Positions 302 through 23,118 of a stretch of 55,313 nucleotides of DNA are shown one piece after another. Positions within the stretch are counted from its first letter, which is position 1; the number at the start of each line of letters is the position of its first letter. A model generated the notes under the pieces. It saw nothing but the letters and a program-made list of their open reading frames with translations, did no database searches and was not told the origin of the DNA. The position numbers were made by a program, and so were the translations under genes. Source of the DNA: Chloroflexota bacterium. Lineage in GTDB: Bacteria; Chloroflexota; Dehalococcoidia; Dehalococcoidales; JAZDNC01. The stretch covers positions 1 through 55,313 of the forward strand of contig JAZDNC010000037.1 of NCBI GenBank assembly GCA_043800335.1, in the 5' to 3' direction.

Positions 302-337
302 AACATCCCCTGAGCCAACCAGAACTCAGGGGATGTT
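302..337 (-). terminator. Rho-independent terminator downstream of the 388..1089 gene
   Basis: 13-bp perfect inverted repeat AACATCCCCTGAG/CTCAGGGGATGTT with an adjacent A-run (U-tract on the minus strand). Confidence 0.75.
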
Positions 338-387
338 CAATTCACGAGCTACTTGCCTCCGGTTTACTGTCCATCCTACTGACCCAC

Positions 388-1089
388 CTACATTATCTGG
401 ACACCCGCTGGCAACTCGAACATGCTGTCCGGGATATCGCTAAAGTCGTAGTCTTTGAACTCGGAGATTGTTTTGCCCTCGGTTGTGGTTTGTTCCACCT
501 TGACGGGCAAACCACGGTCCTGCGAAATCCACATTTTTGACACGTTGCCTTCGAAATTGTATTCGAGGATGTAGCAGACGACACCGTTTATAGATTCAGT
601 ACCGAGATTCTTCGGATTATAGTCCGCGATAGAGCTTACCTCTTGCGTCGCTGGTTTCGAGGCTTGGTCGACGCTCGTTTTCACAGCAATGTTTTGCGAT
701 GGAATGTACGTGTACATAGTCTGGGCATCTAAGTCGACAAGACCAATGGCAGCAATGCCCTGAAAGCTCATTTCCATCCTCATCTTGTTTTTCTTGACCC
801 AGGTCACTGTACTTATTGCCGGAACGCCGGGCTGGGTTATCACTAAAGTGTACTTCAAGCTGGTTACGTTTTGTGCCCGGCCCAGGATTTCGCTCAGTGT
901 ATCACCGGATTTGGTTTGGGTTGGCTCAGGCGTAACCGGGGTACTTGGTCTTGGTGTCGCTACTGGTGATGTCTTCTCCGGTGACGGCCCCGCAGTCGGC
1001 GTTATTGTTTTACCTCCGCCACAGCCAGCGAGCAGGGTTATTGTAACTAGAACCGCCACTAACGCCCCTACAATTCGGCTTCTTCTCAT
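388..1089 (-). CDS. Lipoprotein with Pro/Thr linker and LolA-like/DUF4412-type beta domain
   Basis: Lipobox LLAGC, PT-rich linker, C-terminal pattern KMWIS..RGLPVK...DIPDSMFELP; ATG at 1089 with GGAG upstream. Confidence 0.75.
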   Translation of the reverse strand: MRRSRIVGALVAVLVTITLLAGCGGGKTITPTAGPSPEKTSPVATPRPSTPVTPEPTQTKSGDTLSEILGRAQNVTSLKYTLVITQPGVPAISTVTWVKKNKMRMEMSFQGIAAIGLVDLDAQTMYTYIPSQNIAVKTSVDQASKPATQEVSSIADYNPKNLGTESINGVVCYILEYNFEGNVSKMWISQDRGLPVKVEQTTTEGKTISEFKDYDFSDIPDSMFELPAGVQIM

Positions 1090-1327
1090 CAATAGGCTCC
1101 TTTCTACTTCAGTCTTTTAAAACGTTAAGGTTCGAATCTTACACATGCCATCGTGTGAACAGGAACGTAAGGGAATGAGAGAACGAATGTCGGCAGGAGA
1201 CTGATGAGCGAGAAAAACAGAGGAGCTTTTTGAAGAATCCAGTCTGTCTTTTCATATGTCTTCTTATCACCCAGCTTATATCACAAGGCCGTTGGCTCGA
1301 ATCCAAGCCACTTATTCTATACTTAAA

Positions 1328-1358
1328 AGCCCCTAAGGTGACCAAGAACTCAGGGGCT
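1328..1358 (-). terminator. Probable terminator of the Gly-rich protein gene; paralogous to 302..337
   Basis: AGCCCCT...AGGGGCT stem with adjacent AAAA. Confidence 0.55.
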
Positions 1359-1373
1359 CATTCAATTCACGAG

Positions 1374-2273
1374 CTACTTGCCACCACCGCCTCCGCCGCC
1401 ACCTCCACCACCACCACCACCGCCACCAGGCCCTCCTCCACCTCCACCCCCACCGGGGCCTGCTCCACCACCAGGACCTGTTCCACCTCCGGAAGGCACT
1501 CCACCTTTGCCACCAGGACCTGTTCCTCCACCAGGACCTGTTCCACCTCCGGAAGACACTCCACCTTTGCCACCAGGACCTGTTCCTCCACCAGAACCTG
1601 TTCCTCCACTAGGACCCGTTCCAGTCTTATCAGGCGGCTGTGTTCCTGTCTTGTCAGGTTGCGTCCCAGTCTTACCAGTCGGTGTCTTGGTCTTTCCCGA
1701 TACATCGGTCGAGATATGGGTCGGTCCCGGGGTTACGGTCTGGGGCGTTGGCATTTCAGGCTCACCAGACCCTCCACCGTCGTCAGACGGTGTTCCAGCA
1801 TCATCGGGCGTCGGCGTTTTGGTCTTGACGGGCGTCGGCGCTTCAGCCCCATCTTGGGGTAGTCCCTCTTCTTTACCAGTCGAAGGAGCCTTAGCCTTGA
1901 TAGAAATCTTATAGAAGCTCGGCACCCGGCTTCGTCCGGTAACTTTTAGATTCACCGTTCCGTCCTCGGACTTTTCCCATACCCCCGGGGACAACTCGTC
2001 GCCTTGACTGACACTGCTCAGGTCGAGTCCCAGGCTGGTAAATCCGCTCAGTGCCGAGACCAGATACGTCTCGCCATCGGTTTCCTTGATGTTCATTGAG
2101 CCTTCGGACTTTTGTAGCCACGCCCCCTGGGTGGCTGACCAGTCGCCAGAAGAGTAGCCGGGCGGCGCCCACCCATCCAGGCTTAATTGCCAGCCGTCAG
2201 CGGCAGAAACTGGCGAGGCAAGCAAAAAGACCACAACGGCTCCGGTTAACAGGGCTATAAGAATCTTTTTCAC
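1374..2273 (-). CDS. Secreted low-complexity Gly/Pro/Thr-rich protein
   Basis: Signal peptide MKKILIALLTG...VSA, small Trp-containing N-domain, GGGTGP repeats and poly-Gly tail. Confidence 0.7.
   Translation of the reverse strand: MKKILIALLTGAVVVFLLASPVSAADGWQLSLDGWAPPGYSSGDWSATQGAWLQKSEGSMNIKETDGETYLVSALSGFTSLGLDLSSVSQGDELSPGVWEKSEDGTVNLKVTGRSRVPSFYKISIKAKAPSTGKEEGLPQDGAEAPTPVKTKTPTPDDAGTPSDDGGGSGEPEMPTPQTVTPGPTHISTDVSGKTKTPTGKTGTQPDKTGTQPPDKTGTGPSGGTGSGGGTGPGGKGGVSSGGGTGPGGGTGPGGKGGVPSGGGTGPGGGAGPGGGGGGGGPGGGGGGGGGGGGGGGGK
1468..1610. repeat. Coding tandem repeat with 60-bp period inside the Gly-rich gene
   Basis: Lines 1501 and 1561 begin identically (CCACCTTTGCCACCAGGACCTGTTCCTCCACCAG); encodes GGGTGPGGKGGVxSGGGTGP. 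Confidence 0.85.
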
Positions 2274-2300
2274 AGTTGCCCCCTGTTTAAAGTTTCACCA

Positions 2301-2771
2301 TCACATGTTCCATATCGCGCTGAGCAAAGCCCGCCCGGCAGCGCCCAGCGTATTGTAGACCGCCGTCGCCAGGTCGTTGAACTGGGCGGTCTGCTCGGTC
2401 GTCCACGTTGCCTTGTCTTCCGGCAACCCGGCGATATAATCTCTCAGTGGTTTTTCAGTAGTAAGGTAATTCTCCCAGGCGGTGCTGAGGTCGCCATCCG
2501 CGATAAACTCAACCACACCCCCAAACTCGGTATTGAAGGTATCGGCATCAGCAAACGAGTAATTATCGAAGCCATAAAACTGGTCATACCACATGTGATA
2601 AGCAGAGAAAGCCACGACGCGTCTTTCCAGCGCGGCGATGCGACCCTGGGCGTCGGCGAGGTCGCTCTGGAGCTTAGCGTAGTCTTCTTTTGATACCCCG
2701 CCGGAACACCCGCTGAGCACGGCGATTCCCAGCAGGATAACCGATAGTGTGACAACCAACGTTTTCTTCAT
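2301..2771 (-). CDS. Hypothetical lipoprotein with short coiled coil
   Basis: Lipobox VLSGC, then YAKLQSDLADAQGRIAALE; purine-rich RBS. Confidence 0.75.
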   Translation of the reverse strand: MKKTLVVTLSVILLGIAVLSGCSGGVSKEDYAKLQSDLADAQGRIAALERRVVAFSAYHMWYDQFYGFDNYSFADADTFNTEFGGVVEFIADGDLSTAWENYLTTEKPLRDYIAGLPEDKATWTTEQTAQFNDLATAVYNTLGAAGRALLSAIWNM

Positions 2772-2803
2772 ACTTTCCCTCTTTCTAGCTCGCTGGTTTC
2801 TAT

Positions 2804-2948
2804 AATAAAAAGGGCAGCAACTTCGCCAGTACCTGGCAATTCTGCTGCCCTCGGTTCATCTACCATCCCCATCGAATCACTTTGGGAGACTATCTCAGAG
2901 AGGTCTCATGCCAAGCACTAACCTACACCCTGATTTGTCAATTGTCAA
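2804..2948 (-). promoter_or_regulatory. Sigma70-like promoter followed by a structured leader ending in a terminator hairpin
   Basis: TTGACA(2948-2943)-17-TAGGTT(2925-2920); hairpin AGGGCAGCA...TGCTGCCCT followed by TTTTATT (2851-2804) before the ATG at 2771. Confidence 0.55.
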
Positions 2949-3030
2949 TAGGAAAATAGCCCTTATCGCTCTTAGTTGGTGTAACGAGCGAGTCCGTAAT
3001 CCCAGCTGTGTGATAATCCGAGAGACTAAT

Positions 3031-3894
3031 CTAGGTTAACTCTGTGCCGCTTGCTACCAGTTCCCGGTACGCCTGCCTGAGCTTCCGGGTAATCGTCCCT
3101 GGTCTGCCGGAGCCAATCATTTTCCCGTCCAATTCGCTCAGAGGCATAACCTCTATTAACGAGCTGGTGAGAAAAGCCTCCTCCGCCTGAAGTAGTTCCT
3201 CCAGCCGTATGTCCTGTTCAACCGCTTTAATACCCATCCTGCCCGCCAACTCCAGGACTATCTCCCTCGTAATTCCGGGAAGTATTCCGCTTTGAGTCCC
3301 CGGCGTCCTCAGTGTGCCTCTGGTAACGAGGAAGGCATTGCTCATGCTGGCTTCGGCAAGTAGCCCTGCCTCATTGAGACAGATGGCTTCACCCGCCCCG
3401 GCGGCTCTTGCCTGCTCTCTAGCCAGGATGCTCTCCAGATAATTGGCTGACTTAAGAGCAGAGAGAAGCGACCGTTGGTTACGGCGGACTGACGAGACTA
3501 TAGCCCCGAGCCCCTTTTCGTAGACTGGCTCGGGGTAAGGCTGGTAGGCTCCCGCCACAACCAAGACGGTGGGACTCTTACATGAAGCAGGGTCGGGTGC
3601 CATCCCGCCCTCGCCGATAGACACGGTAATACGAATGCGTGCCTCGCTGAGCCGGTTAGCCCGGAGCGTATCCATTACGGCGCTCTTCAGGTCTAATCCC
3701 CCGATTTTGATGCTCAGGAGCTCCGCGGAACGGGCGAGCCGGGCAAGGTGTCTATCCAGACCGAAAACCCTGCCCCCATAGGCGCGCATCGTCTCGAAGA
3801 GGGCGTAGCCGTAGAGAAAGCCGTAGTCCATGACGGAGATACTGGCCTGGCTACGGGGTAACATGACGCCGTTGAGATAGACTATTTCATCCAT
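3031..3894 (-). CDS. pabC: Class IV PLP aminotransferase, probable 4-amino-4-deoxychorismate lyase
   Basis: GFLYGYALFETMR, KSANY, EASMSN, ILPGITR motifs; third gene after pabB-pabA. Confidence 0.75.
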   Translation of the reverse strand: MDEIVYLNGVMLPRSQASISVMDYGFLYGYALFETMRAYGGRVFGLDRHLARLARSAELLSIKIGGLDLKSAVMDTLRANRLSEARIRITVSIGEGGMAPDPASCKSPTVLVVAGAYQPYPEPVYEKGLGAIVSSVRRNQRSLLSALKSANYLESILAREQARAAGAGEAICLNEAGLLAEASMSNAFLVTRGTLRTPGTQSGILPGITREIVLELAGRMGIKAVEQDIRLEELLQAEEAFLTSSLIEVMPLSELDGKMIGSGRPGTITRKLRQAYRELVASGTELT

Positions 3895-4477
3895 TCTCAT
3901 CCCACCTCGGCCGGGAAAAGCTGAGGAAATTCCGGAGCAAATCGTGCCCCGTTCCGGTCATGATTGATTCGGGATGAAACTGCACCCCTTCAACCACATA
4001 CTCTCTGTGCCGGATGCCCATCACCACACCGTCAACCGTTTGGGCAGTGAGTTCCAGCTCGGGTGGTAGGGCGTCTTTCCTCACCATCAGAGAGTGGTAG
4101 CGCCCGGCTTCAAAGGGGCTCGCCAGACCCCGGTAGACTGTTCTGCCATCGTGATAGACGAGGGAGCTTTTGCCGTGGGTAGGCAGTGGCGCACGGACGA
4201 CCTCGCCGCCGTAGACATAGCCGATGCACTCGTGCCCGAGGCACACCCCCAGGATTGGGACTTTCCCGGCAAAGTAGCGGATAGCTTCGTTAGAGATACC
4301 CGCTTCAAGCGGGGTACAGGGTCCCGGGGAGATGATGATGTGGGATGGGCGCATCTGCTCAATCTCGCTCAGGGTAATATGGTCGTTACGGTAGACCGCC
4401 GGCTCCCAGCCCAGCTCGCCCAGATATTGAGCCAGGTTGTAGACAAAGGAATCGTAGTTATCGATGATAATAACCAT
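3887..4477 (-). CDS. pabA: Aminodeoxychorismate/anthranilate synthase component II (glutamine amidotransferase)
   Basis: IDNYDSF, ISPGP, GVCLGH, RYHSL, GVQFHPES. Confidence 0.9.
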   Translation of the reverse strand: MVIIIDNYDSFVYNLAQYLGELGWEPAVYRNDHITLSEIEQMRPSHIIISPGPCTPLEAGISNEAIRYFAGKVPILGVCLGHECIGYVYGGEVVRAPLPTHGKSSLVYHDGRTVYRGLASPFEAGRYHSLMVRKDALPPELELTAQTVDGVVMGIRHREYVVEGVQFHPESIMTGTGHDLLRNFLSFSRPRWDENG

Positions 4478-4478
4478 A

Positions 4479-5921
4479 CTACCCTACCGAGGTTAGCCCC
4501 AGACTGAGGGCGGCGATGAGTGCCTTGGCCTTGTCCAGTGTCTCCTGGTACTCGGCTTCCGGCTCGGAGTCGTAGACCACAGCGCCGCCCACCTGGAAGT
4601 AGGCTTTCTTGCCCTTGACGAGAAAGGTGCGTATGGCGATATTCAGGTCAATGTCCCCGTTGAAACCCAGATAGCCGATACTGCCGGTGTACACGCTCCT
4701 GCGGGTCGGCTCCAGCTCATCGATAATCTCCATTGCCCTGACCTTGGGTGCCCCGGTGATGGAGCCACCGGGAAAAGTCGCCTTGAGCAAGTCAATGGCG
4801 TTCTTGCCTTCTCTGAGCTTGCCCATCACGGTAGAGGTGAGGTGGAAGACGGTAGGATACGTTTCAAGTATCGCAAGCTCAGTCACCTTAACCGAACCGA
4901 ACTGTGAGACCCGCCCCAAATCGTTTCTCTCCAGGTCTACAATCATGATGTTCTCCGCCCGGTCTTTGGGACTGCCAAGAATCTCCCGGACAAGGGCTTC
5001 ATCCTCTTGCGGTGTCCCTCCCCGCGGGCGGGTGCCCTTGATGGGTCTGGTCTCGACCAGGTCGCCACGAAGGCGGAGAAACCGCTCCGGCGAGGCGCTC
5101 ACCACCTGAACTTCAGGAAAACCGAGATAGCAGGCGAAGGGCGCGGGATTAATCTTACGTAGTCGCCGGTAAAGCTCATAGGGGGTAATGGCAAGCTCCG
5201 CCTCGAAGCGCTGGGAGATATTTACCTCGAAGATGTCACCAGCAATGATATACTCCCGTGCCTTCCGGACGGTATCAAGGTACTCCTTGTGGGTGAAGTT
5301 CCCTTTGAGACCGTCCGTCGCCACAGGAGAAGTCGCCGGTGCAGTTGATGTCTCTTCCTCGGGCACGAAATCGGCTAACCTATCCTTAGCTTCTCCAAGA
5401 CGACTTTTTGCTCTCTTGAGCCTTTGGCTTTCATCGGTCTCCGGGAAGCCCGTGGAGACGAGATAGGCCTTAGCCTCAAGGTTGTCAAAGGCGAGAACCA
5501 AGTCATAGAAGCCAAAGTAGGACTCGGGTAGCCCAAGGTCATCAACCGCCTTCTCCGGCAACTGCTCAATGAAGTGAGCGAGGTCGTAGCTGAGATAGCC
5601 TACCGCCCCACCGCCAAAAGGCACCGGCAGAGGACCTGAGTCCAAGCGATAGGTCTCAAGAAGACGACCAAGTTCGTCAAAGGGATTGCCGTCTAAGTGG
5701 CGCTGTCTTCCTTCCTCGTTGATGGTAATTTGAGGGCCGCGGCTGCTGAACACCAGAAAGGGACTGCTACCCATGAAAGAATAGCGTCCCAGCTTATGGG
5801 GGTCCATACCGCTGTCAAGGAAGAAACTGTAAGGCTCCTCCCGGAACATCTCAAACGCTGCCGGTGGTGATAGACGGGTGTCTATCTCCTCGACAAGGGG
5901 ATAGAGAGGCAACCGACTCAT
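4479..5921 (-). CDS. pabB: Aminodeoxychorismate synthase component I
   Basis: SPERF, PIKGTRPR, ENIMIVDLERNDL, FPGGSITGAPK. Confidence 0.9.
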   Translation of the reverse strand: MSRLPLYPLVEEIDTRLSPPAAFEMFREEPYSFFLDSGMDPHKLGRYSFMGSSPFLVFSSRGPQITINEEGRQRHLDGNPFDELGRLLETYRLDSGPLPVPFGGGAVGYLSYDLAHFIEQLPEKAVDDLGLPESYFGFYDLVLAFDNLEAKAYLVSTGFPETDESQRLKRAKSRLGEAKDRLADFVPEEETSTAPATSPVATDGLKGNFTHKEYLDTVRKAREYIIAGDIFEVNISQRFEAELAITPYELYRRLRKINPAPFACYLGFPEVQVVSASPERFLRLRGDLVETRPIKGTRPRGGTPQEDEALVREILGSPKDRAENIMIVDLERNDLGRVSQFGSVKVTELAILETYPTVFHLTSTVMGKLREGKNAIDLLKATFPGGSITGAPKVRAMEIIDELEPTRRSVYTGSIGYLGFNGDIDLNIAIRTFLVKGKKAYFQVGGAVVYDSEPEAEYQETLDKAKALIAALSLGLTSVG

Positions 5922-5953
5922 ACGACAGAATACCCTGCATTCAGCATGGTGGC

Positions 5954-5982
5954 ATGATACCGCAGCAGAGAAATCACGTCAA
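5954..5982 (-). promoter_or_regulatory. Sigma70-like promoter of the pab operon
   Basis: TTGACG-17-TATCAT on the minus strand. Confidence 0.55.
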
Positions 5983-6138
5983 TTCAGGGAGGAGCGATTC
6001 CATATTATCCACCTTGTATTCCCGCCTTCCTCGTGGCTCTTTTCTCACATACCCCTTCCCAAATGCCCTTTTAGGTGATAGAATGAAAGCCAGAATAAGA
6101 TTAAGTCCCGGTAAAACCGATTCGCAAGGGAGACCAGT

Positions 6139-6378
6139 ATGAAGAAACATCTTGTCTGGTATCTCGTAGGTCTGGTGGTGCTGACACTGATCGTGGCTGC
6201 CTGCGGTGGCGGGACGTCAACATCTACCGTATCGGCGTCGGCAATCTCGCATCCCACCGCCGGCTTTGAGGATTGCCTCAAGTGCCATGCTACCGGCACC
6301 AGCGGTGCCACTGCCGTGCCCGCCAACCACTCAAGCTACACGAACAGCATGTGCACCAACTGCCACAAGCCCAAATAG
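6139..6378 (+). CDS. Small dihaem c-type cytochrome lipoprotein
   Basis: Lipobox IVAAC; two CxxCH motifs (CLKCH, CTNCH); GGAG RBS. Confidence 0.85.
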   Translation: MKKHLVWYLVGLVVLTLIVAACGGGTSTSTVSASAISHPTAGFEDCLKCHATGTSGATAVPANHSSYTNSMCTNCHKPK

Positions 6379-6461
6379 CCCGCGCGGCTTTCCCCCGCAA
6401 ATGGTGAACTCCCGGCATAAGCTGGGCCTGTGCCGACGAGCAACGCGACCTAACCCCGCAT

Positions 6462-6581
6462 ATGGTTAGCCTTCGGCGTGGTTCCACTGAGTCACTCGTT
6501 CCGATTAGTCGTCAGAGTGAACCACGAAGTGAGACCTCGGCGTGAGCTCGGTCGAACGCTCAGTCGAACGCTTGTCGAACA
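6462..6581. repeat. Nested palindromic repeat (TGAGC..GTCGAA family), copy A
   Basis: Near-identical to 47441..47533 apart from a 27-nt insert at 6496..6522. Confidence 0.85.
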
Positions 6582-6677
6582 TGTTCCCTCTTTTTAGCAG
6601 TCCGCCTTGACAATAAATAATTTGAAATAAAATCCAGCGTGCGCTAAAATTAGGGCGGTTGTGAAGGAGGCAAAGAG

Positions 6678-6881
6678 ATGCCGCGTTTGGGTCCGTGGGA
6701 AATTGCGCTCATCCTCCTCATCGTGCTCATCGTCTTTGGTGTGGGTAAACTGCCCCAGGTGGGTAGCGCACTGGGTAAAGGGCTAAGAGAGTTCAACAAA
6801 GCCAGGTCGGGTGAGGACGAGGAGAAGGAAAAATCTAAGTCAGCCAAGCCAGAAAAGGACAAGGAGAAGAAGGAGAGCTAG
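6678..6881 (+). CDS. tatA: Twin-arginine translocase TatA/E subunit
   Basis: [36 protein letters not shown]; AAGGAGG RBS. Confidence 0.93.
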
Positions 6882-7675
6882 GGCTTTCGCCCCACCTCTC
6901 TCACCTTCTCGACTATCCCGGGCAGAATCTCACCGGTTTTCCCCTGAATTATGTAGTCGGAAATCCCTCCGTAGGTCAGTGGCGTCGGCTCGGCATTCAC
7001 CTCAATGATAACCACCCCCTTTTTCCCTCTGGCGGTCCGGGGCAGGTCAGCGAAGGGATAGACCACCGCCGAGGTGCCACAGATTAGCATCAAATCGGAT
7101 TTTAAAGCCTCTTCGTGGCTTTTCTGAGCGACATCCCGCGGGATTGGCTCGCCAAAGGCGACCCCGTCGGACTTGACCACCCCACCGCACTCGGGACAGC
7201 GCGGCGGTAGCTTACCCTCAGCCTTAAGTCTGGTCAGGTCAAATCTCTCCGGTTTGAAGCGGGCGAGGCAGGTAGCACATCTCAACTTAAAGGCGTTCCC
7301 GTGGTATTCAAGGAGGCTTTTTGTCCCTGCCTTCTCGTGGAGACCGTCAACATTCTGGGTGATGACGCATTTCAGAATCCCCATCCTCTCTAGCTCAGCC
7401 AGGGCGTGATGACCGGCGTTAGGCAAGACCTTGCTCAGGTCGCCGAGAAAGCCGATGCCGGAAAGCCTCTCCTCCCACCAGCCCTTGGGGTCGCTAAGGA
7501 AGCGCTCGTAGCTCCGGTAGGCTCTTCGCTCCGCATCGGGATTTTTCGTCCAGATGCCAGAGGGTCCTCGGAAATCGGGGATGCCTGACTCCGTGGTGAT
7601 GCCAGCGCCGGTGAGGGCGATGGCGTAGTGCGAGTTAACCAGGTCTCTCGCCGCTCTCGAAATAAGCTCCTCCAT
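6878..7675 (-). CDS. cobB: NAD-dependent protein deacylase (sirtuin)
   Basis: [25 protein letters not shown], two CxxC, GTSAVVYP. Confidence 0.9.
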
Positions 7676-7695
7676 GGCTCTACCTCAGATTCAAT

Positions 7696-8481
7696 CTATT
7701 TAGCGTGGGTTTTCACAAATGTCTCAATCGTGCCGAAGTAAAGCTCTCCCGCCATCATAATATCATTGTGCCCGACTCCGGGAATAACCAGAAGATGTTT
7801 GGTAACTGCTCCCGAAGCCTGATAAAGCTCCCGTCCTTCCTCAAGCGGGACAAGCTCATCCAACTCGCCGTGGATGATAAGAGTCGGACTGGTTACCTTC
7901 CTGATTTTTACCTTGTTCAGATAGGGATTCGCCTCGGTGAAGGCGGTTTCGTCCATGCTGAGTCTAGACATGAGGCGACGGAAATTGGTGGCAGAACCGC
8001 TCTCAACAATCAGCCCCGAGATTTCGTGCCCGTGACTCACGGCAACCTCAATGGCAGACATACTGCCCAGCGAGTGTCCCATGACAAAGAGACTCCCCCT
8101 GAATCCCTCCTTCGCCATTATCTCCTTGAAGTCACTGAAGATATGGGGAGCGTCAGCCAGCATATTTGAGACCGTCGGCTTGCCGGAGCTTGCCCCGTAG
8201 CCACGGTAGTCGGCGACAAAGAGATTGATGCTCATCTGGTTATAGAGAGGGGCGATAGACTCATATCCAGAAGCGGTCTCACCGTTGCCGTGGAAGAAGA
8301 GAATGGTCGGAGCGTCCTTAGCCACTGTCCAGAACTCACAGCCAATCTCAACACCCTCGGCTACCGGAATCAAGTAGTCCGGCTCGGGAGACGGGAAGAA
8401 GCTGTCGGCAAAAAAGGGCGAGTAGACGAGGGGGAAGATAACCTCAAGAGCCTCCGGCTCATCTAAAAAGGATAAGTCCAC
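7696..8481 (-). CDS. Alpha/beta hydrolase
   Basis: FFHGNGE, DYRGYG, GHSLG, HGELDE, HND; GTG start at 8481 with GGAGAG RBS. Confidence 0.85.
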   Translation of the reverse strand: MDLSFLDEPEALEVIFPLVYSPFFADSFFPSPEPDYLIPVAEGVEIGCEFWTVAKDAPTILFFHGNGETASGYESIAPLYNQMSINLFVADYRGYGASSGKPTVSNMLADAPHIFSDFKEIMAKEGFRGSLFVMGHSLGSMSAIEVAVSHGHEISGLIVESGSATNFRRLMSRLSMDETAFTEANPYLNKVKIRKVTSPTLIIHGELDELVPLEEGRELYQASGAVTKHLLVIPGVGHNDIMMAGELYFGTIETFVKTHAK

Positions 8482-8563
8482 TGTTTGACTCTCCAAAGGC
8501 TTGCGATTTCCCAGACAAATAATAGCCAAGTCGCCGTGATTTCTCAAATGGTTAAAGCTCTCT

Positions 8564-8751
8564 GTCATTGCGAGTCCCGATGAAATCGGGACGTGGCAAT
8601 CTCAACCGATATGTCATTCCCGCACAAGCGGGAATCTAAGGCTTGGAACAAACTCAGATGATTGCCGTTCTTTTAGACTCACGGGTCAAGCCCGACAATG
8701 ACAAAGTGGTAATGGATGAGATTGCCACGTCGCTTCGCTCCTCGCAATGAC
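8564..8751. repeat. Cluster of GTCAT-tagged short palindromic repeats (REP-like), including an ATTCCC-N8-GGGAAT unit
   Basis: GTCATTGCGAG...CGTGGCAATCTC (8564-8603), GTCATTCCCGCACAAGCGGGAATCT (8613-8637), inverted unit at 8718-8751. Confidence 0.85.
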
Positions 8752-8851
8752 GTCTAGGTTATTTCCGGCAATGACGCCAATCATAAACGAGTGGACTCTT
8801 GTAAGAAACTGTTTGACAATTCCTTTTTGTTCGGTTAATGTCTTGGACATT

Positions 8852-9808
8852 ATGAAGGTTCTGGTCATGGGCGCCGGGGCAATCGGTAGTGTCTTCGGCG
8901 GGCTTCTCGCCAAAGCCGGGAGCGAGGTGAGTCTCGTCGGCAGGGGGCGCTATATGAGCGCTGTCGAAAGAAATGGGCTCATGCTCAGCGGCATCTTCGG
9001 CGAACACCACGTTACCAATCTCAAGACCTTTACCAAGGTGAGCCAGATTAAGGACAGGGACTTTGACCTTATCCTGATTACCACCAAAGCCTTTGACACC
9101 GAAGAAGCGGTTAAGGAAGTCCTCCCTCTCGTCGGAGTCAAGACCCTCGTCATCTCCCTGCAGAACGGTCTGGGCAATTTAGAAGCTATCGCCCGCCTCG
9201 CAGGAGAGGAACATGCCGTGGGCGGAAGGGTCATCTTCGGGGTTGAAATGCCCGAGGTGGGTCACGCGAAGGTCACTGTCTTCGGCGATAAGGTACTGCT
9301 GGGCAGCCCATCAGGCAAGATTCCCTTAGAGCGTATCGCTGAGGTAGCCCGGCTTTTCACGGAAGCCGGTATCCCCACCGAGGCAACGACAGAAATTAAC
9401 CACTACCTCTGGGGGAAAATCCTCTATAACTCCTGCCTCAACGCCCTCTCAGCAATTCTCGGCTCAAACTACGGCGTGCTGGGGAAAATCCCCGAGACCA
9501 GAGAGATTATGGCAGAGGTCGTTAGCGAGATATTCGCCGTGGCTAAAGGCGAGGGAGTAAAATTGGGCTTCGCGAACCCCGCGGATTACCTTTCGCTTTT
9601 TTACAGCCGGCTCCTGCCCGCTACCGCCGCTCACCACTCCTCCATGCTTCAGGACGTGAGGCAGGGCAGAAAAACCGAGATTGACGCCATGAACGGCATA
9701 ATCGTTAAGCTGGGTGAAAAGCATGGCATTGAAACCCCGGTGAACCGCCTCCTAACCCGGCTTGTCCACGCCAGGGAAAAGCTGCCAGCCAACCCGCCCC
9801 AAGGTTAG
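8852..9808 (+). CDS. panE: 2-dehydropantoate 2-reductase
   Basis: MKVLVMGAGAIG, TTKAFD, SLQNGLG, WGK..N...N, SSMLQD..GRKTEID..NG. Confidence 0.9.
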   Translation: MKVLVMGAGAIGSVFGGLLAKAGSEVSLVGRGRYMSAVERNGLMLSGIFGEHHVTNLKTFTKVSQIKDRDFDLILITTKAFDTEEAVKEVLPLVGVKTLVISLQNGLGNLEAIARLAGEEHAVGGRVIFGVEMPEVGHAKVTVFGDKVLLGSPSGKIPLERIAEVARLFTEAGIPTEATTEINHYLWGKILYNSCLNALSAILGSNYGVLGKIPETREIMAEVVSEIFAVAKGEGVKLGFANPADYLSLFYSRLLPATAAHHSSMLQDVRQGRKTEIDAMNGIIVKLGEKHGIETPVNRLLTRLVHAREKLPANPPQG

Positions 9809-9810
9809 AG

Positions 9811-10962
9811 CTAGGGAACCGGGGTTATCCCCAGTCCGCTCATGATTGCCAGCATGACCGCCGCCGCCATGACCGAACCAATCTGACCGCCGGTGTTAGC
9901 CCCTATGGCATGCCAGAGAAGAAAGTTCCTGGGGTTTGCCTTCTGTCCCTCACGCTGTACCACCCGGGCAGACATGGGAAACGCCGAGGTGCCGGCGGCA
10001 CCGAGGAGCGGATTTATCTTGCCACCGGTGATTAAGTACATGAGCTTACCCAGAAGCACCCCGGTTACAGTGTCCAGGGCAATGGCGATAAGTCCGAGCA
10101 CAAAGACCAGAATCGTCTGCCACCTGAGGAAGTCCCCTGCCAGCATGGAGGCGCCGATAGTGAGCCCCAGAAAGAGGGTGACCAGATTGACGAGCGCCCC
10201 CTCGGAGACAGAGACCAGCCGACCCACTACCCCTGACTCCTTGAGGAAATTCCCCAGCATGAGCATCCCCATGAGAGGCGCCCCCATCGGGGCGATGAGA
10301 ATGGTAAGGATACCCGTGACCAGCGGGAAGAGAAGCTTCACCTTGGGGGAGACCTTCTTTTCACCGGCAGGCATCGGGGTCATACGCTCTTTTTTCGTGG
10401 TGAGAATTCTCATGATGGGGGGCTGGATGATGGGCACCAGTGACATGTAGCCATAGGCGGCGATGGAGACCGCCGGCAGAAGCTCCCGGGCGTATTTGGC
10501 GGTGACATAGATGGCGGTAGGCCCGTCGCAGGCACCGATGATGGCGACGGAGACCGCCTGGGTCCGGGAGAAGCCGAGCATAAGCGCCAGAAACAGGGTA
10601 AGAAAGATGCCGAACTGCCCGGCGGCGCCGAAGATGAGCACCATCGGATTACCCAGCATGGGGCCAAAGTCAATCATGGCGCCAAGCCCAATGAAAAGCA
10701 GGCAGGGGAAAAGCTCGGTCAGGATGCCCGCCTTATAGAGCAGGTTGATTATCCCGCCCTCGTCCCCGGCGGCGAGTCCAGCCAGAGGCAGGTTCCCCAG
10801 AATGATACCAAAGCCGATGGGCAGAAGGAGTACCGGCTCAATCTTCTTCGCCACACCAAGGTAAAGGAGGAGACAGCCCATCAGAATCATGAGTGCCGTC
10901 TGCCAGCTAAGATTGGCAAAGCCCTGTCCCAGGCTTTCGAGAGCTTTAATCCAGACTGACAA
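9811..10962 (-). CDS. oadB: Na+-translocating decarboxylase subunit beta
   Basis: EPVLLLPIGFG, IIGACDGPTAIY, AAYGYMSLVPIIQPP, SAFPMSARV. Confidence 0.9.
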   Translation of the reverse strand: MSVWIKALESLGQGFANLSWQTALMILMGCLLLYLGVAKKIEPVLLLPIGFGIILGNLPLAGLAAGDEGGIINLLYKAGILTELFPCLLFIGLGAMIDFGPMLGNPMVLIFGAAGQFGIFLTLFLALMLGFSRTQAVSVAIIGACDGPTAIYVTAKYARELLPAVSIAAYGYMSLVPIIQPPIMRILTTKKERMTPMPAGEKKVSPKVKLLFPLVTGILTILIAPMGAPLMGMLMLGNFLKESGVVGRLVSVSEGALVNLVTLFLGLTIGASMLAGDFLRWQTILVFVLGLIAIALDTVTGVLLGKLMYLITGGKINPLLGAAGTSAFPMSARVVQREGQKANPRNFLLWHAIGANTGGQIGSVMAAAVMLAIMSGLGITPVP

Positions 10963-10979
10963 GAAAGCCTCCTCTGAGG

Positions 10980-11123
10980 TTAATCTTGCTTTTTCTCCTT
11001 GGTTTCCTGGTAGGGGAAAAGCCTGACCAGAAGCCGGATGACCAGCGTCAGCAGAAAGAGGGTTAGGAAGGTGACCCCCATCCCCATTACGGTCATGGTG
11101 AGACCAAAAGCCGCATCGGTCAA
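10980..11123 (-). CDS. oadG: Na+-decarboxylase gamma/OadG-type single-TM subunit
   Basis: GLTMTVMGMGVTFLTLFLL motif; TTG start at 11123 with AAGGAGG RBS; directly upstream of oadB. Confidence 0.75.
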   Translation of the reverse strand: MTDAAFGLTMTVMGMGVTFLTLFLLTLVIRLLVRLFPYQETKEKKQD

Positions 11124-11220
11124 ACCAATCCTCCTTGAACTGACTTGACCAAGATTATAGCATGTCGGCAATAGTGAGAGCATTGCTCGCCTGAGTTGTG
11201 TCATTGCCAAACCCCTCTCC

Positions 11221-11252
11221 GTCATTGCGAGGAACGAAGTGACGTGGCAATC
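11221..11252. repeat. GTCATTGCGAG...GTGGCAATC palindromic repeat
   Basis: Same termini as the units at 8564, 8718 and 16219. Confidence 0.8.
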
Positions 11253-11344
11253 CGCACCTCTTCTCAGTGCGATAAAGCAAGAGTCAACGATACTAACGTC
11301 GAAGGACAAGCCTCCTGTTCCGGTAAGTCACGACCAAAGGACTC

Positions 11345-12079
11345 TTATACCTGAAAATCGGGGGCGACCGGCATCTGCCTTTTATGCTCACTCCGCGCAT
11401 GAAGCGATTCAATCCTCTGCTTCACGGTATCCGTCGCCCTGCCGGTCAGGATAAAGCGGTCAAGCTCTTCGTAGCTCACGCCAAGCTCGCCCTCACCGGT
11501 CTGCCCCGGCCAGAGCCCCGGTGTCGGCGGCTTATCCACAATCACCTTGGGGATGCCCAGATGAGTCCCCAGCTCTCTCACCTGGCTCTTGACCAGATTC
11601 GCCAGAGGCACGATGTCAACCCCGCCGTCGCCGAACTTGGTGAAGTAGCCGGCGGTAATCTCACTCCGGTCACCGGTGCCGGCAACAAGGTATTTAAGCT
11701 CATTAGCGAAGTAGTAGAGGGTAGTCATCCTGAGCCTCGGCTTCAGATTAGCCATGGCAATCTGGTTCACCTTGGCATCGTCACTTAATTTCGGCAAAAC
11801 CTTGAGAAAGGCATTAAAAACACCATCCAGAGCAACTCTTCTTGACGGAATGGCGAACTTATCAATCACCATGCGGGCGTAGACCTCGTCATCGGGATGG
11901 CTCTCAATGGGCATAATCAGCCCGAGGATTCTGTCATTAAGCGCCATCTTACACAAGACCGCCATGACCGATGAGTCAATACCCCCGCTCATGCCGAAGA
12001 CGAGCCCATCGGCGCCGGCGGCGGTAACCCTGTCTCTAATCCAGGATACCAGCTTCGCGGTAAGCTCTGCACAGTCCAT
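11345..12079 (-). CDS. nadE: NH3-dependent NAD+ synthetase
   Basis: GMSGGIDS, NLKPRLRM, GYFTKFGDG, KPPTPGLWPGQT, SEHKR. Confidence 0.93.
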   Translation of the reverse strand: MDCAELTAKLVSWIRDRVTAAGADGLVFGMSGGIDSSVMAVLCKMALNDRILGLIMPIESHPDDEVYARMVIDKFAIPSRRVALDGVFNAFLKVLPKLSDDAKVNQIAMANLKPRLRMTTLYYFANELKYLVAGTGDRSEITAGYFTKFGDGGVDIVPLANLVKSQVRELGTHLGIPKVIVDKPPTPGLWPGQTGEGELGVSYEELDRFILTGRATDTVKQRIESLHARSEHKRQMPVAPDFQV

Positions 12080-18879: not shown

Positions 18880-18954
18880 GGCGACGTAGCCAAGTGGCAA
18901 GGCAGGGGTCTGCAAAACCCCCATTCAGCGGTCCGAATCCGCTCGTCGCCTCCA
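18880..18954 (+). tRNA. tRNA-Cys(GCA)
   Basis: GGCGACG/CGTCGCC acceptor stem, GGGGT-CTGCAAA-ACCCC anticodon arm, encoded CCA; atypical T-loop TCCGAAT. Confidence 0.9.
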
Positions 18955-19053
18955 TCTTACTTCCCCGTTGAATGAGTGCCAACGCTTGATTTTTATTCTT
19001 AGCGCGCTATAATACTTGACCTACCTAGCCTTAATTGCTAAAGTAAAACTGAC

Positions 19054-19126
19054 GCCCGAGTAGCGCAATGGTAGCGCAACCGACTTGTAATCGGTAGGCT
19101 AGTGGGTTCGACTCCCCTCTCGGGCT
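19054..19126 (+). tRNA. tRNA-Thr(TGT)
   Basis: GCCCGAG/CTCGGGC stem, ACCGA-CTTGTAA-TCGGT, GGTTCGACT; CCA not encoded. Confidence 0.93.
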
Positions 19127-19139
19127 GGTTTTTGAGTCT

Positions 19140-19227
19140 GGAGAGGTGCCGGAGCGGTTAATCGGAGCAGACTGTAAATCTGCCGCCCTGACGGGCTTCG
19201 TGGGTTCGAATCCTACCCTCTCCACCA
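19140..19227 (+). tRNA. tRNA-Tyr(GTA)
   Basis: GGAGAGG/CCTCTCC stem, GCAGA-CTGTAAA-TCTGC, long variable arm, TTCGAAT, CCA. Confidence 0.95.
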
Positions 19228-19292
19228 GTGCTTGCAAAAATTAGCAGAAATTAGCTGGGCTGATTATATAAGGTTCACATCCAACCCAGCCT

Positions 19293-20588
19293 CTAAGCCT
19301 CAAAAGCTACCCCATCAGCTTTAATCTCTGTCCTGTCAGATAACTCACAGAAGATATCAGGATGCAGAGTATGGATAGGTACTAACTTTTGCATATCAAG
19401 CTCTTTAGTAACACGTTTAATGTCATCAACTGATGCATGACCGCTGGTGTGAAGCGCCTCCAGTGAAAAACCTCTCTTCTCCAGAGCCCTTTCAAAGATT
19501 TGTTGATATTCATTGTCGCGGTAGCCCCGCCACATCGAATAAAGGAAAACGCCGTCATGCAGTCCGCACCTTTCAATATCCATGCGCATGGATGGGCGAC
19601 ACGCCATAATAGTACTATCCTGTACCTTATTCAGTTGTTCGCGCGAGATATGATATTCTGAAAAACGCCGTGCGTACTCCTCTCCAATCTGGTTAAAAAT
19701 CTTTTGCGTTAATCGGTATGGGAAAAACACCTTTATCTTGGGATATTCCTGCGATGGGTAGGGCAGGTTGTTTCCAAGTTGCCGCAGTTCATACATAACG
19801 TTAGCCGTATAGATATCGACAACAAATGTCCGCTTCAGCCGCAGAGCCGCTCTGTAAAAGCCTACCAGACGGTCTATATTCTGGCTTGAGCATTGGAAAA
19901 GTAGAGGAATGTTCAATCCTTTCATTCGTGCAACGACCGCGTCTTCAAGCTCTTTTTCAGTCATTATCTTTTCGTCAAGTCGCCCGAGTATCGACCCCTC
20001 GATTAGAAGAATATTGGGTTGTTTCTTTGCCGTTTCTAAAAAGCGGTCAAGACACACAGCCTTTCGACCATGTCCACGGAAATCACCGGAGTAGGTTACA
20101 GTTTTGTCTTCCGAGTTGATTTCAAAGGCTGCTGCGTCAAAAGCAGAGTGGTCCATCAGATAAGGTTTTATTTTAATATCGCCAATTTGGAAAGACTGGT
20201 ACATTTGAAATTTTCTAATTTCCACATCGAAACTATCGCAAATTTTGAAAAGCTGAGATACTTGAATGAGTCTCTCGGTTCCGGCAGACATATAAACGGG
20301 TATCATGGAGTTGATATATTTTAAAAGCCCGTAATGGTCGATATGCGCATGTGAGATCAGCACGGCATCGAAGTCTGGTTTATCCCAGGCATATAAGCCG
20401 ACAATTTTAGGCAGCACGCCAAGTGCAAGAAGCTCTGAGTAAGATAGCTTAGCAATACCATCATCAATCGGCTCGTTGTTCAGAAACAGAGGGTATCCAG
20501 CATCAATCAAAACACGAGTTGCTTTTGTTTTGATCTCAATTAGAGTTCCGCCAATCTCTCTGGTGCCGCGATAAATGGTAATTTGCAT
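19293..20588 (-). CDS. Metallo-beta-lactamase fold, RNase J-like beta-CASP nuclease
   Basis: GTREIGGT, SHAHIDH, DHSAFD, YSGDFR, HTSGHA, PIHT motifs. Confidence 0.85.
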   Translation of the reverse strand: MQITIYRGTREIGGTLIEIKTKATRVLIDAGYPLFLNNEPIDDGIAKLSYSELLALGVLPKIVGLYAWDKPDFDAVLISHAHIDHYGLLKYINSMIPVYMSAGTERLIQVSQLFKICDSFDVEIRKFQMYQSFQIGDIKIKPYLMDHSAFDAAAFEINSEDKTVTYSGDFRGHGRKAVCLDRFLETAKKQPNILLIEGSILGRLDEKIMTEKELEDAVVARMKGLNIPLLFQCSSQNIDRLVGFYRAALRLKRTFVVDIYTANVMYELRQLGNNLPYPSQEYPKIKVFFPYRLTQKIFNQIGEEYARRFSEYHISREQLNKVQDSTIMACRPSMRMDIERCGLHDGVFLYSMWRGYRDNEYQQIFERALEKRGFSLEALHTSGHASVDDIKRVTKELDMQKLVPIHTLHPDIFCELSDRTEIKADGVAFEA

Positions 20589-20594
20589 AAAGAT

Positions 20595-21593
20595 TTATCT
20601 TATTTCAATGCCCGGAATACTCGTGCTTAAAAATTTGAGTTTGTTATTTTCCTCTTTAAAATAGAGGTAGTGAAGCACGATAGTATCTCTATCAACAGGC
20701 AGAGCCAATCCGCCGAAGGAATAATCATTGTTATTATTAGGGGGCATCACACATGCCGCATACAGCACTAGTTGGTTCGGTATCTCTCCACTGAAACCAA
20801 ATAGCTTCCACCATAGCTTTCCAGAATCGCTGCGTAGCAGTTCGCGGATAAACGTTGTATAAGCCACTGCCTGTTTCACTGTATCTTTGGGTGGTTCTGT
20901 ACTTTTGTTAACATCCTTCAATTCCATAATACACAGGTGTGTTGCTCTGCCTCTTCCTACCCTTGTCAAGATATCTATATGGCCATAACCGATTTCCACT
21001 TTTTTATGGTTACTTGCTTTGATGTTTGTGGGCATGGGGAAACGGACATTTTTAATCGGTGTTACTGGTTGTACATTCAGCAGCGCCTTGTCCTTGCTTT
21101 CCGTTTTGAAAAACTCCGTCAAAATCAGACTTTCTAGGCGATGTTCATCATTACTGCGGTTGCCCTCGCGACGACCTTTTCTTTTATTGAAATAGTTACG
21201 AAATTCCGTTGCCTCGTCGCCGCGCCAGTCAACGTTTGAAAGACGTAAGTTACAACCAAAATTGTCCAGATTGCTTTTGTCATAAGATTTAGACTTGGTA
21301 TATTTGGTGCTTAGCTTGTGATTCCCATCCTTGTTTCCTGTAAGCTTGGCAACTGCTTGTCCCATATACCGCAAATCAAAGCCTATCGATTTTGGGGCAT
21401 TTTTCGCCGAAGTTGTAGTTACATAGACATATAGCGGAGACCATTCACGGAAGCTACTGCGGATGCTCTCAATTAGCTTTTTATTGCTGCAAATATCAGT
21501 CGCAAAGCCAGCCCAACGAGTTTGCCACTCTGTATTTTCCCTCAAGAGCTTTTGTGTGTTCTCAATAATAGCCATAAATTCACTATTGTCCAA
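20595..21593 (-). CDS. Hypothetical protein with PD-(D/E)xK nuclease signature
   Basis: EHRLE ... GHIDIL ... IMELKD ... KQAVAY (E/D/ExK/QxxxY); TTG start with AAGGAGAG RBS. Confidence 0.7.
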   Translation of the reverse strand: MDNSEFMAIIENTQKLLRENTEWQTRWAGFATDICSNKKLIESIRSSFREWSPLYVYVTTTSAKNAPKSIGFDLRYMGQAVAKLTGNKDGNHKLSTKYTKSKSYDKSNLDNFGCNLRLSNVDWRGDEATEFRNYFNKRKGRREGNRSNDEHRLESLILTEFFKTESKDKALLNVQPVTPIKNVRFPMPTNIKASNHKKVEIGYGHIDILTRVGRGRATHLCIMELKDVNKSTEPPKDTVKQAVAYTTFIRELLRSDSGKLWWKLFGFSGEIPNQLVLYAACVMPPNNNNDYSFGGLALPVDRDTIVLHYLYFKEENNKLKFLSTSIPGIEIR

Positions 21594-21680
21594 AGTCTCT
21601 CCTTAACAGCTGCCTTCTTAAAAAATAGTATAACTCGAAATAAGTGAGATCAACAAGAGTCTCCCCGCCAAATATCTTTC

Positions 21681-21806
21681 TTGACAAGAACACACATTAG
21701 ACTTATTCTATAAATATCTGGTTCCCGTATTTAAGGTTGTTCAGTGGAGCGTCGTTTCCTGTGAGCAGGGGCGAAGCTTGACTTTTCGTGTTCGTTAACC
21801 TAAAAT
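21681..21806 (+). promoter_or_regulatory. Two tandem sigma70-like promoters for tRNA-Thr-tuf
   Basis: TTGACA-17-TATTCT from 21681; TTGACT-17-TAAAAT from 21778. Confidence 0.6.
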
Positions 21807-21819
21807 TGGTCGTTAATTT

Positions 21820-21892
21820 GCCCACATAGCTCAGTCGGTAGAGCACGTTCTTGGTAAGAACGGGGTCATCAGTTCGAATCTGATTGTGGGCT
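21820..21892 (+). tRNA. tRNA-Thr(GGT)
   Basis: GCCCACA/TGTGGGC stem, CGTTC-TTGGTAA-GAACG, TTCGAAT. Confidence 0.93.
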
Positions 21893-21912
21893 CATGAGAT
21901 AAGGGGGTTATA

Positions 21913-23118
<1,206 letters not shown>

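Follow-up and report, generated by a model that had tools for sequence, protein, structure and literature searches.

Background

The beta-CASP enzymes RNase J, CPSF-73 and INTS11 combine endonuclease and 5'-3' exonuclease activities, and members of their superfamily carry the HxHxDH, H and D motifs of the metallo-beta-lactamase (MBL) fold together with motifs A (D/E), B (H) and C (H or V). Among the PD-(D/E)xK nucleases, a QxxxY motif after the ExK is a feature of RecB/AddB/Cas4-type enzymes, and the defence system Shedu is a single-gene system. In the excerpted texts of four reports an MBL-fold hydrolase appears as an exchangeable anti-phage effector of Avs1, UG9 and HamMAB (PMC9226505, PMC13069673, PMC12799240, PMC12642450), and in that of a fifth a beta-CASP nuclease, Cas14, serves as the immune effector of type VII CRISPR-Cas (PMC13069675). 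The stand-alone protein EF2904, a structural-genomics entry, is named just as a hypothetical beta-CASP protein in the excerpted text of PMC3095777. Here we describe a two-gene cassette that combines an EF2904-like beta-CASP protein (hereafter MBL) with a second protein, PAR, that has a PD-(D/E)xK nuclease domain. It forms an AT-rich islet between tRNA genes of a Chloroflexota bacterium of the order Dehalococcoidales, in contig JAZDNC010000037.1 of assembly GCA_043800335.1 (55,313 nucleotides (nt), analysed at its full length and referred to as the window). An initial annotation made from the sequence alone had proposed a horizontally acquired module of two nucleases, a putative DNase and a putative RNase, without a methyltransferase, matching no named defence system.

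The cassette resembles each of the described systems in part. MBL belongs to the same length class as EF2904 (431 versus 429 amino acids (aa)) and likewise consists of MBL and beta-CASP domains only. It shares all the MBL and beta-CASP motifs and the RMMBL domain with RNase J, CPSF-73 and INTS11, but lacks the C-terminal ~160 model residues of RNase J, and its gene is horizontally moved and paired with that of a PD-(D/E)xK protein. Being of the beta-CASP type, MBL is unlike the MBL modules of Avs1 and HamMAB, and it matches no PADLOC model; the Avs1, UG9 and HamMAB modules, as presented in the excerpted reports, need a trypsin-like protease partner, whereas the islet encodes no protease and PAR has no protease domain. 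The Cas14 model NF045584 gives MBL 20.4 bits over 25 residues, against a cut-off of 800, and no cas genes or CRISPR array were seen beside the islet. Restriction-modification systems of types I-III require a cognate methyltransferase, and the islet, which holds two genes only, has none, as first proposed.

On the side of PAR, the SduA nuclease of Shedu resembles what we propose for it: the PD-(D/E)xK nuclease is C-terminal, behind a variable N-terminal sensor, and no methyltransferase is involved. PAR aligns with SduA 8ps4 at Z 6.0 (root mean square deviation (rmsd) 3.9, 138 residues aligned) and with Shedu 8ti8 at Z 4.2, no DUF4263/SduA model in Pfam or PADLOC matches it, and it differs in usually being accompanied by a beta-CASP partner. 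NucS/EndoMS, XisH-like proteins, McrC and type IIS enzymes share the E...D...ExK core with PAR at 9-16% identity, but none of them has its N-terminal domain, and PAR adds the QxxxY motif after the ExK.

No family of PADLOC-DB v2.0.0 (2023) matched PAR or MBL at E<=1, and none matched four more MBL relatives, five more PAR relatives (two of them longer) or two MBL-partner fusions at E<=0.001. The literature, supplements not covered, yielded only Cas14, the protease-gated MBL modules and incidental mentions, and no description of a beta-CASP plus PD-(D/E)xK pair. As far as checked, the pair is thus unnamed as a nuclease-based defence-island module, in agreement with the initial annotation.

A conserved pair of nucleases

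MBL scores above the Pfam gathering cut-offs for Lactamase_B_2 (46.3 bits, cut-off 27) and RMMBL (23.4 bits, cut-off 21.6), and these scores together with the motif list given above place it in the beta-CASP superfamily. The motifs are H80xH82xD84H85, H147, D169, E197, H380TSGH384 and PIH406. All ten metal-binding and beta-CASP residues (H80, H82, D84, H85, H147, D169, E197, H380, H384 and H406) are kept, and they are invariant in 26/26 sequences of alignment A2 and in all of the 31-32 sequences that cover them in a larger comparison. Among solved structures, 2AZ4 (EF2904 of Enterococcus faecalis, E 1.1e-21) is the nearest in sequence, matching in two stretches, residues 3-241 and 358-411; INTS11, RNase J and archaeal CPSF follow with E 2e-5 to 4e-3. 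Relatives of MBL number in the thousands; the nearest, at 60-83% identity, are without exception 431 aa long and carry source names from Dehalococcoidia through to Thermoclostridium. Some sources label relatives 'ribonuclease J'.

MBL is not the housekeeping RNase J of its host. It reaches 42.4 bits with the RNase J model TIGR00649 (cut-off 400) and 39.8 bits with NF047419 (cut-off 820). Because the RNase J alignment stops at model position 386 of 546, and MBL itself ends at residue 431, the protein lacks the C-terminal domain of RNase J and is a minimal MBL plus beta-CASP protein. A full RNase J is encoded elsewhere in the host assembly (1.44 Mb, 94 contigs), on contig C11 (G000:C11:13772-15397), with 592.6 bits against the cut-off of 400, where MBL obtains 30.5 bits. 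An assignment of MBL as an Apyc1-like cyclic-nucleotide phosphodiesterase was also considered and rejected: the sole hint was an NCBIfam match at E 0.023, MBL has beta-CASP and RMMBL features, and no phage homologues of it were found, which argues against that assignment as well.

PAR has no match at E<=1 in Pfam, NCBIfam or PHROGs, as in PADLOC. Its AlphaFold model, built on a 24-sequence alignment, has a predicted local distance difference test score (pLDDT) of 91.7 and a predicted template modelling score (pTM) of 0.90. The motifs E150, D207, E224-L-K226 and Q241xxxY245 are invariant in alignment A1; D207, E224, K226, Q241 and Y245 are kept in 44/44 relatives, and with E150 included the motif residues are retained in 43-44 of the 44 sequences. 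In the model, the first helix (149-162) bears E150, D207 comes just after strand 200-206, E224 and K226 are at strand 219-225, and Q241 and Y245 are on helix 235-253.

The structure matches of PAR agree with this motif geometry. VIA-align gave the repair endonuclease NucS (2vld) as the top match of residues ~147-332, with Z 8.4, rmsd 2.9 and 107 aligned residues, followed by XisH-like 2okf (Z 7.3), McrC and PaqCI (both Z 6.6) and SduA, with Upx, Can2, Card1 and HamA also among the matches; by the search tool's own note these Z values are middling. Foldseek found no match in the PDB at E<=0.001, and its weak rows are mostly PD-(D/E)xK nucleases, including AddB, Exo5 and Dna2. A structure atlas added leads below the tool's own bar, namely REase-ARP/PDDEXK_13 (template modelling (TM) score 0.55), NucS_C and SduA_C. 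PAR therefore fits the PD-(D/E)xK superfamily by catalytic layout and fold similarity, with no match to a named family of the Pfam clan. Residues 1-146 modelled alone reach a pLDDT of 92.4; their best structure match, at Z 4.6, is not convincing, and no known modification-reader fold, which would bear on type IV (modification-dependent) restriction, is among the matches. The fold and the conservation of PAR bear out the restriction-endonuclease-like E...D...ExK...QxxxY signature of the initial annotation, just as the Pfam scores and invariant residues do for its MBL/beta-CASP nuclease with intact metal-binding motifs; every motif string quoted there is present in the translations and conserved in the alignments.

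A word-indexed search returned 231 relatives of PAR, and a profile search of 1.84 billion representatives returned 773 clusters at E<=1e-3, of which 431 were at E<=1e-30. In the ESM Atlas, PAR falls into clusters of 977, 62 and 57 members, to none of which a Pfam family is assigned. Because homologues of the two proteins run from hundreds to thousands, both open reading frames (ORFs) are real genes and not chance frames.

PAR and MBL are paired across bacteria. We surveyed 43 PAR loci, one genome per species, sorted by tblastn and ORF maps; loci, genomes and contigs of this study are cited with the prefixes L, G and C. According to database labels the loci span at least nine phyla (Bacillota, Chloroflexota, Bacteroidota, Desulfobacterota, Spirochaetota, Actinomycetota, Omnitrophota, Lentisphaerota and Synergistota), plus one Burkholderiales bin. 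At 25 loci an apparently intact MBL gene is adjacent on the same strand, mostly with PAR first and in some cases with MBL first, and at two loci the proteins are fused in a single ORF in opposite orders (MBL-PAR, 742 aa, in L017; PAR-MBL, 771 aa, in L019). The 742-aa fusion is not a one-off assembly slip, because it is known from four contigs of several sources. MBL lies one to three genes away at five loci (L011, L039, L040, L041, L042), is adjacent but split by a 1.4-kb insertion at L037, and is reduced to a 38-aa remnant at L009. Four loci carry PAR without MBL within at least 1.3 kb on each side (L003, L010, L018, L027), and six are uninformative since the contig is cut (L008, L020, L030, L031, L032, L036).

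The pairwise identities of PAR and MBL correlate over 31 paired loci (Spearman/Mantel rho 0.45, reached by 0/999 permutations, with the qualification that related sequences are not independent). This co-divergence fits joint inheritance of the two genes, as judged from their sequences. The expectation that the genes are conserved as a pair is thereby supported: MBL is adjacent or fused at 27/43 PAR loci and nearby at five more, and the divergences of the two proteins are correlated.

Several loci show variations of this arrangement. In L037 (5404-7930) MBL is split into pieces covering residues 1-114 and 142-430 by the ~1.4-kb insertion, which holds two opposite-strand ORFs (293 and 103 aa) and resembles an insertion element. 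In L011 (8990-12449) a MunI-like type II restriction enzyme, an MT-A70 methylase and a PDC-S02-like fragment lie between PAR and MBL, as if the pair had been interrupted by the insertion of another defence unit. A 617-aa protein upstream of PAR in L003 was considered as a possible MBL and rejected (hhalign probability 0.7%). Longer PAR forms of 521-534 aa occur in L003, L005, L006, L008, L012, L014 and L035, some with and some without MBL; the extra N-terminal ~200 aa of these ~530-aa forms have only sub-threshold matches to the chaperone-like TY-Chap2 (E 3e-4 to 6e-3). A search for longer PAR proteins returned three longer forms only.

Foreign origin and insertion site

The cassette is a horizontally acquired, foreign piece of ~2.6 kb, inserted in a ~60-nt spacer between tRNA-Tyr and the promoter of tRNA-Thr(ggt)/tuf (Table 1). 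Its GC content is 0.41-0.46 across 19200-21800, against 0.53-0.61 in both flanks. With a 4.6-kb query, in which the islet occupies positions 689-3235, we searched 30 genomes of the same order (order-mates), and the islet DNA was found in 0/30: the query matched the tRNAs and tuf only. The tRNA-Tyr and tRNA-Thr(ggt)/tuf blocks stand on one contig, 35-150 nt apart, in about 23 of these genomes; three others have larger gaps (285, 363 and 1292 nt), and in four the comparison is limited by contig ends or separate contigs. PAR itself occurs in 3/301 sampled genomes of the order, the host included, and in the other two it is directly followed by MBL, at different places. Low GC content, absence from 30/30 order-mates and the rarity of PAR uphold the horizontal acquisition that had been proposed, and the separate RNase J on C11 together with the absence of the islet from order-mates settles that MBL is not a vertically inherited RNase J.

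Table 1. Features of the cassette and its borders in the window
Feature	Position	Strand	Evidence
tRNA-Tyr(gta), left border of insertion	19140..19227	+	ARAGORN, Rfam
Left junction, 65 nt	19228..19292	.	read from sequence
MBL gene, 431 aa, ATG start; stand-alone beta-CASP metallo-beta-lactamase, EF2904-like	19293..20588	-	Pfam, sequence match to 2AZ4
PAR gene, 332 aa, TTG start	20595..21593	-	AlphaFold model and structure matches
PAR domains: residues 1-146, N-terminal domain; ~147-332, PD-(D/E)xK nuclease			
Cassette upstream region	21594..21777	-	GGAG 21602-21599, TATACT 21632-21627
Promoter-like TTGACT-17-TAAAAT for tRNA-Thr(ggt)/tuf; resident DNA, right border	21778..21806	+	consensus scan
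tRNA-Thr(ggt), right flank	21820..21893	+	ARAGORN, Rfam
tuf	21913..23118	+	ORF list

The ORF list, ARAGORN and the GC data all confirm the initial description of two antisense genes 6 nt apart in an AT-rich islet after tRNA-Tyr. The minus-strand genes, separated by the six bases 20589-20594, provide 2.4 kb of coding sequence, and the ORF list shows no third gene in the islet. The plus-strand tRNA block upstream (18880-19227) consists of tRNA-Cys, tRNA-Thr(tgt) and tRNA-Tyr. On the right, ~45 nt upstream of tRNA-Thr(ggt), including the promoter-like element, are common to three order-mates; on the left, the border falls within about a dozen bases of the 3' end of tRNA-Tyr. The left junction holds a weak inverted repeat, GCTGGG (19254-19259) and CCCAGC (19285-19290), just beyond the MBL stop codon; no terminator was called there by the scan, and the junction has no alignment to the tRNA spacers of relatives. 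Ahead of PAR, a Shine-Dalgarno-like GGAG lies 5 nt from the TTG start and a minus-strand TATACT lies 33 nt from it. The hexamer annotated as a -10 box is thus present, whereas its status as a promoter is unsupported by the consensus scan, which does not list the site and finds six promoter-like sites against 5.2 +/- 2.6 in shuffled sequence. The Rfam scan of the window returned four tRNAs only, besides a sub-threshold match to the small RNA sX4 at 19131-19267, which overlaps tRNA-Tyr, scores 28.7 bits against a gathering cut-off of 70 and is taken as chance.

Two details of the initial annotation were not supported. Integration at the tRNA 3' end is not backed by the islet, which has neither an integrase nor a flanking direct repeat. 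The comparison with the thrU-tyrU-glyT-thrT-tufB operon, in which glyT would occupy this slot, is inapplicable to the lineage, because ARAGORN found no tRNA-Gly in nine scanned order-mate loci. Five of these nine carry Thr(tgt)-Tyr-Thr(ggt); in four of the five, Tyr and Thr(ggt) are 54-150 nt apart, and in the remaining one 1.3 kb. The relatives have Thr(tgt)-Tyr-Thr(ggt)-tuf.

Insertions may recur in the slot between tRNA-Tyr and tRNA-Thr(ggt). One order-mate (L052, G024:C42, 2798-4132) has a different 1.3-kb insert in the same slot. Its 221-aa ORF belongs to no Pfam family, and its 57-aa ORF has a sub-threshold match to a phage-integrase N-terminal SAM-like domain (E 0.017). In L053 (G014) a 61-aa ORF similar to the 57-aa ORF lies beside tRNA-Thr(ggt).

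Genomic neighbourhood and proposed role of the cassette

The most likely biological role of the cassette is defence against phages or plasmids. With a simple greedy caller we obtained 233 ORFs (100 aa or longer) lying up to 4 kb from the pair, scanned them with PADLOC and used the 52 remaining ORFs of the host's housekeeping window as a control. At E<=1e-8, 49/233 neighbours had a match versus 3/52 control ORFs (Fisher p 0.009), the three control matches being generic (a methyltransferase, an ABC ATPase and a helicase); at E<=1e-20 the counts were 33/233 and 0/52 (Fisher p 0.0013). At least one match at the stricter threshold was found in 19/43 loci, and the expected proximity to defence genes is thus borne out by enrichment within 4 kb.

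The matches at E<=1e-20 include type I and II restriction-modification systems (L011, L018, L023, L027, L045), AbiL (L023), an Hhe/PDC-S37-like helicase-nuclease (L010), HEC-06-like proteins (L038), a dCTPase-like protein (L034), WYL regulators and the families PDC-M09B, PDC-M62A/B, PDC-M68A, PDC-M72A, PDC-S01, PDC-S02, PDC-S05, PDC-S10 and PDC-S26. The methyltransferases near some relatives are parts of separate restriction-modification units. IetA-like AAA+ ATPases recur immediately next to the pair in L038 (9030-12430), L042 (1992-3656) and, more weakly, L004 (3421-5739); the ATPase of L042 stands between PAR and MBL, and L004 and L038 also have WYL/WCX regulators. A PDC-S10-like protein adjoins the cassette in two unrelated loci, L031 (7543-7971, E 1.4e-41) and L041 (11546-12136, E 1.7e-72), upstream of PAR in one and downstream of MBL in the other. 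Pfam was run on 116 of the 233 neighbours, the first half, the rest being covered by PADLOC alone. It revealed recombinases in L020 and L022; L025 has an IrrE/HTH regulator and NYN domains, and L007, L008, L017, L021 and others have plain metabolic genes. In L012-L014 (about 1-11700) the pair lies between a NikA/MobC-like gene and a MobA/VirD2 relaxase, downstream of a ~1640-aa SNF2/methylase protein and a Toprim/DUF3991 protein, and L012 and L014 have the ~530-aa PAR; these loci are a mobilisable-element backbone with the pair as cargo.

In the reading that we favour with moderate confidence, PAR and MBL are active, metal-dependent nucleases that work as one machine and restrict phages or plasmids, with no methyltransferase involved. 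Target selection or signal sensing would fall to the N-terminal domain of PAR, which might recognise, for example, modified DNA, free ends or a phage product. The RecB/NucS-like PD-(D/E)xK domain would then make a first cut in the invading nucleic acid, most likely DNA, and the beta-CASP enzyme would degrade it from the new 5' end in a 'cut and chew' mode. Because the cassette has no methyltransferase, the host's own DNA would have to be spared through what this N-terminal domain recognises, or through the way in which expression is controlled. The data show that the pair behaves as a unit with intact active sites, that it is mobile and that defence genes lie near it at many loci; that the proteins form a complex, in which order they act, what they cut and that they serve in defence are inferences.

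A number of observations weigh against this proposal. The case for defence is one of association alone. The enrichment p-values overstate it, because the control is weak, being a single window, and the loci include near-duplicates (L012-L014, L005/L006, L033/L034); the ORF caller was crude and PADLOC hidden Markov model matches are not system calls, and the direction is nonetheless clear. No strong defence match lies within 4 kb at 24/43 loci, many of them on short contigs, and the host cassette is outside any defence island and has no regulator. No direct repeats of at least 12 nt bracket the islet, and it contains no integrase or transposase. PAR was found in 0 of 72,556 plasmids and 0 of 50,697 phage genomes, and on one viral contig only in a scan of IMG/VR. 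The pairing is not obligatory, because of the four MBL-less PAR loci and the remnant in L009. In sequence, the nearest kin of MBL are RNA-acting beta-CASP enzymes, and the final beta-CASP motif of MBL has a His, as is typical of such members. These two features make the DNA 'chew' step uncertain, and the second step, or even the entire system, may act on RNA instead.

The alternative that survives best, though we regard it as unlikely, is a nuclease pair for DNA damage or stress, in which a NucS-like endonuclease and an SNM1/Artemis-like 5'-3' exonuclease would act on damaged or cross-linked DNA, under a WYL-type switch in some hosts, and would spread horizontally like accessory repair genes. 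It is consistent with NucS being the best structure match of the PAR nuclease domain and with the WYL/WCX regulators within 4 kb of the pair in 5/43 loci (L004, L023, L024, L038, L041; directly adjoining in L004 and L024), which also count against a defence role; L011 has a protein of the same WYL/WCX cluster farther off. WYL regulators, such as BrxR and CapW, however, also govern defence systems. The very patchy distribution within the order and the foreign composition speak against a repair function, as do the neighbours of the pair, which are restriction-modification, Abi, PDC and mobilisation genes rather than repair genes, and the islet contains no regulator. Were the DNA-damage explanation true, the cassette would be a mobile repair module, likewise undescribed.

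It is still less probable that the pair is a selfish module serving mobile elements, which would exclude competing plasmids or elements, or addict the host, without protecting it from phages. The mobilisation block of L012-L014, the recombinases near L020 and L022, the MBL relatives on ten plasmids, one of them beside a MobF relaxase, and the unrelated insertion contexts, which show mobility, point in this direction. Conversely, no conserved small antidote-like gene accompanies the pair, the host pair has no mobility gene, and PAR is unmatched on the plasmids searched. This explanation overlaps with defence, because many defence systems are cargo of such elements.

We consider it improbable to a further degree that the cassette is an inert passenger, a recent insertion that is unexpressed or decaying in its host. 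The scan confirmed no promoter, and copies elsewhere have decayed (the L009 remnant and the split MBL of L037), but both ORFs are full length with all catalytic residues intact, GGAG precedes the PAR start, and the genes are only 6 nt apart. No RNA sequencing run containing the stretch was found, which carries no weight either way, and two DNA runs contain only 0.05 of its words. There is least to be said for an accessory RNA-processing or decay enzyme, that is, a second RNase J-like ribonuclease with a helper in a housekeeping or regulatory role, which would suit the kinship of MBL to INTS11, RNase J and CPSF, its RMMBL domain, the 'ribonuclease J' labels and the site inside the tRNA/tuf cluster, since a full RNase J is encoded elsewhere, MBL reaches about a tenth of the RNase J model cut-offs, the islet is antisense to the tRNA operon and absent from all 30 order-mates, and its PD-(D/E)xK partner has intact catalytic residues and a defence-island context elsewhere.

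If the cassette is a defence system, it would add the beta-CASP (RNase J/SNM1-type) enzymes to the stand-alone immune effectors known beyond type VII CRISPR-Cas and the protease-gated MBL modules, and EF2904-like proteins would gain a function. Because it is a small, methyltransferase-free cassette of two genes, it would be easy to test and might be used as a compact nuclease pair.

MBL relatives with other partners

An MBL-family gene (E<=1e-40) is present in 10 of the 401 genomes sampled from the phylum. Besides the host and G144, six matches score above 420 bits (34-40% identical) and have no PAR by tblastn (E<=1e-3) or by profile search of neighbouring ORFs; the two weakest matches, proteins of 526-533 aa with 23% identity, are also without PAR. 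Other genes accompany MBL at these loci. In L067 a 351-aa PDDEXK_4 nuclease overlaps the MBL stop codon. In L062 and L065, from two genomes of the host's class, MBL (about 1501-2800) has an unrelated protein of no family upstream (292 and 222 aa) and DUF7662 downstream (E 4e-15 and 8e-17), which looks like a three-gene variant without PAR. The 293-aa partner in L064 is kin to the C-terminal half of the 747-751-aa MBL fusions of L063 and L066. By hmmsearch, the partners in L062-L069 have no kinship to PAR, and those in L062-L067 have no PADLOC match, save a weak PDC-S26 likeness of the PDDEXK_4 protein.

Because MBL relatives pair with other proteins, the wider picture is one of a beta-CASP enzyme that is itself conserved while its partners, PAR among them, are interchangeable. 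We tentatively suggest, as a possibility that falls somewhat short of an even chance, that the EF2904-type beta-CASP protein is the shared effector of a large, unnamed and mobile immune superfamily, in which exchangeable, fast-evolving PD-(D/E)xK sensor-cutters would join it, as neighbours or in fusions of either order, in a methyltransferase-free endo- plus exonuclease machine that would destroy invading nucleic acid. PAR would then be one partner family and PDDEXK_4 another, several would belong to no recognisable family, and the islet of the host would be the smallest form. The exchangeable partners offer a natural series for the coupling of sensing to degradation.

Relatives of MBL are not confined to the phylum, and proteins 27-35% identical to it are found on the ten plasmids, which belong to cultured bacteria. 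Their ~320-aa partners have no detectable kinship to PAR. On one of these plasmids, from Rhizobium phaseoli, the MBL relative lies between a small ORF and a 320-aa hypothetical protein, and the unit adjoins an Eco57I-like methylase, a GIY-YIG nuclease and the MobF relaxase.

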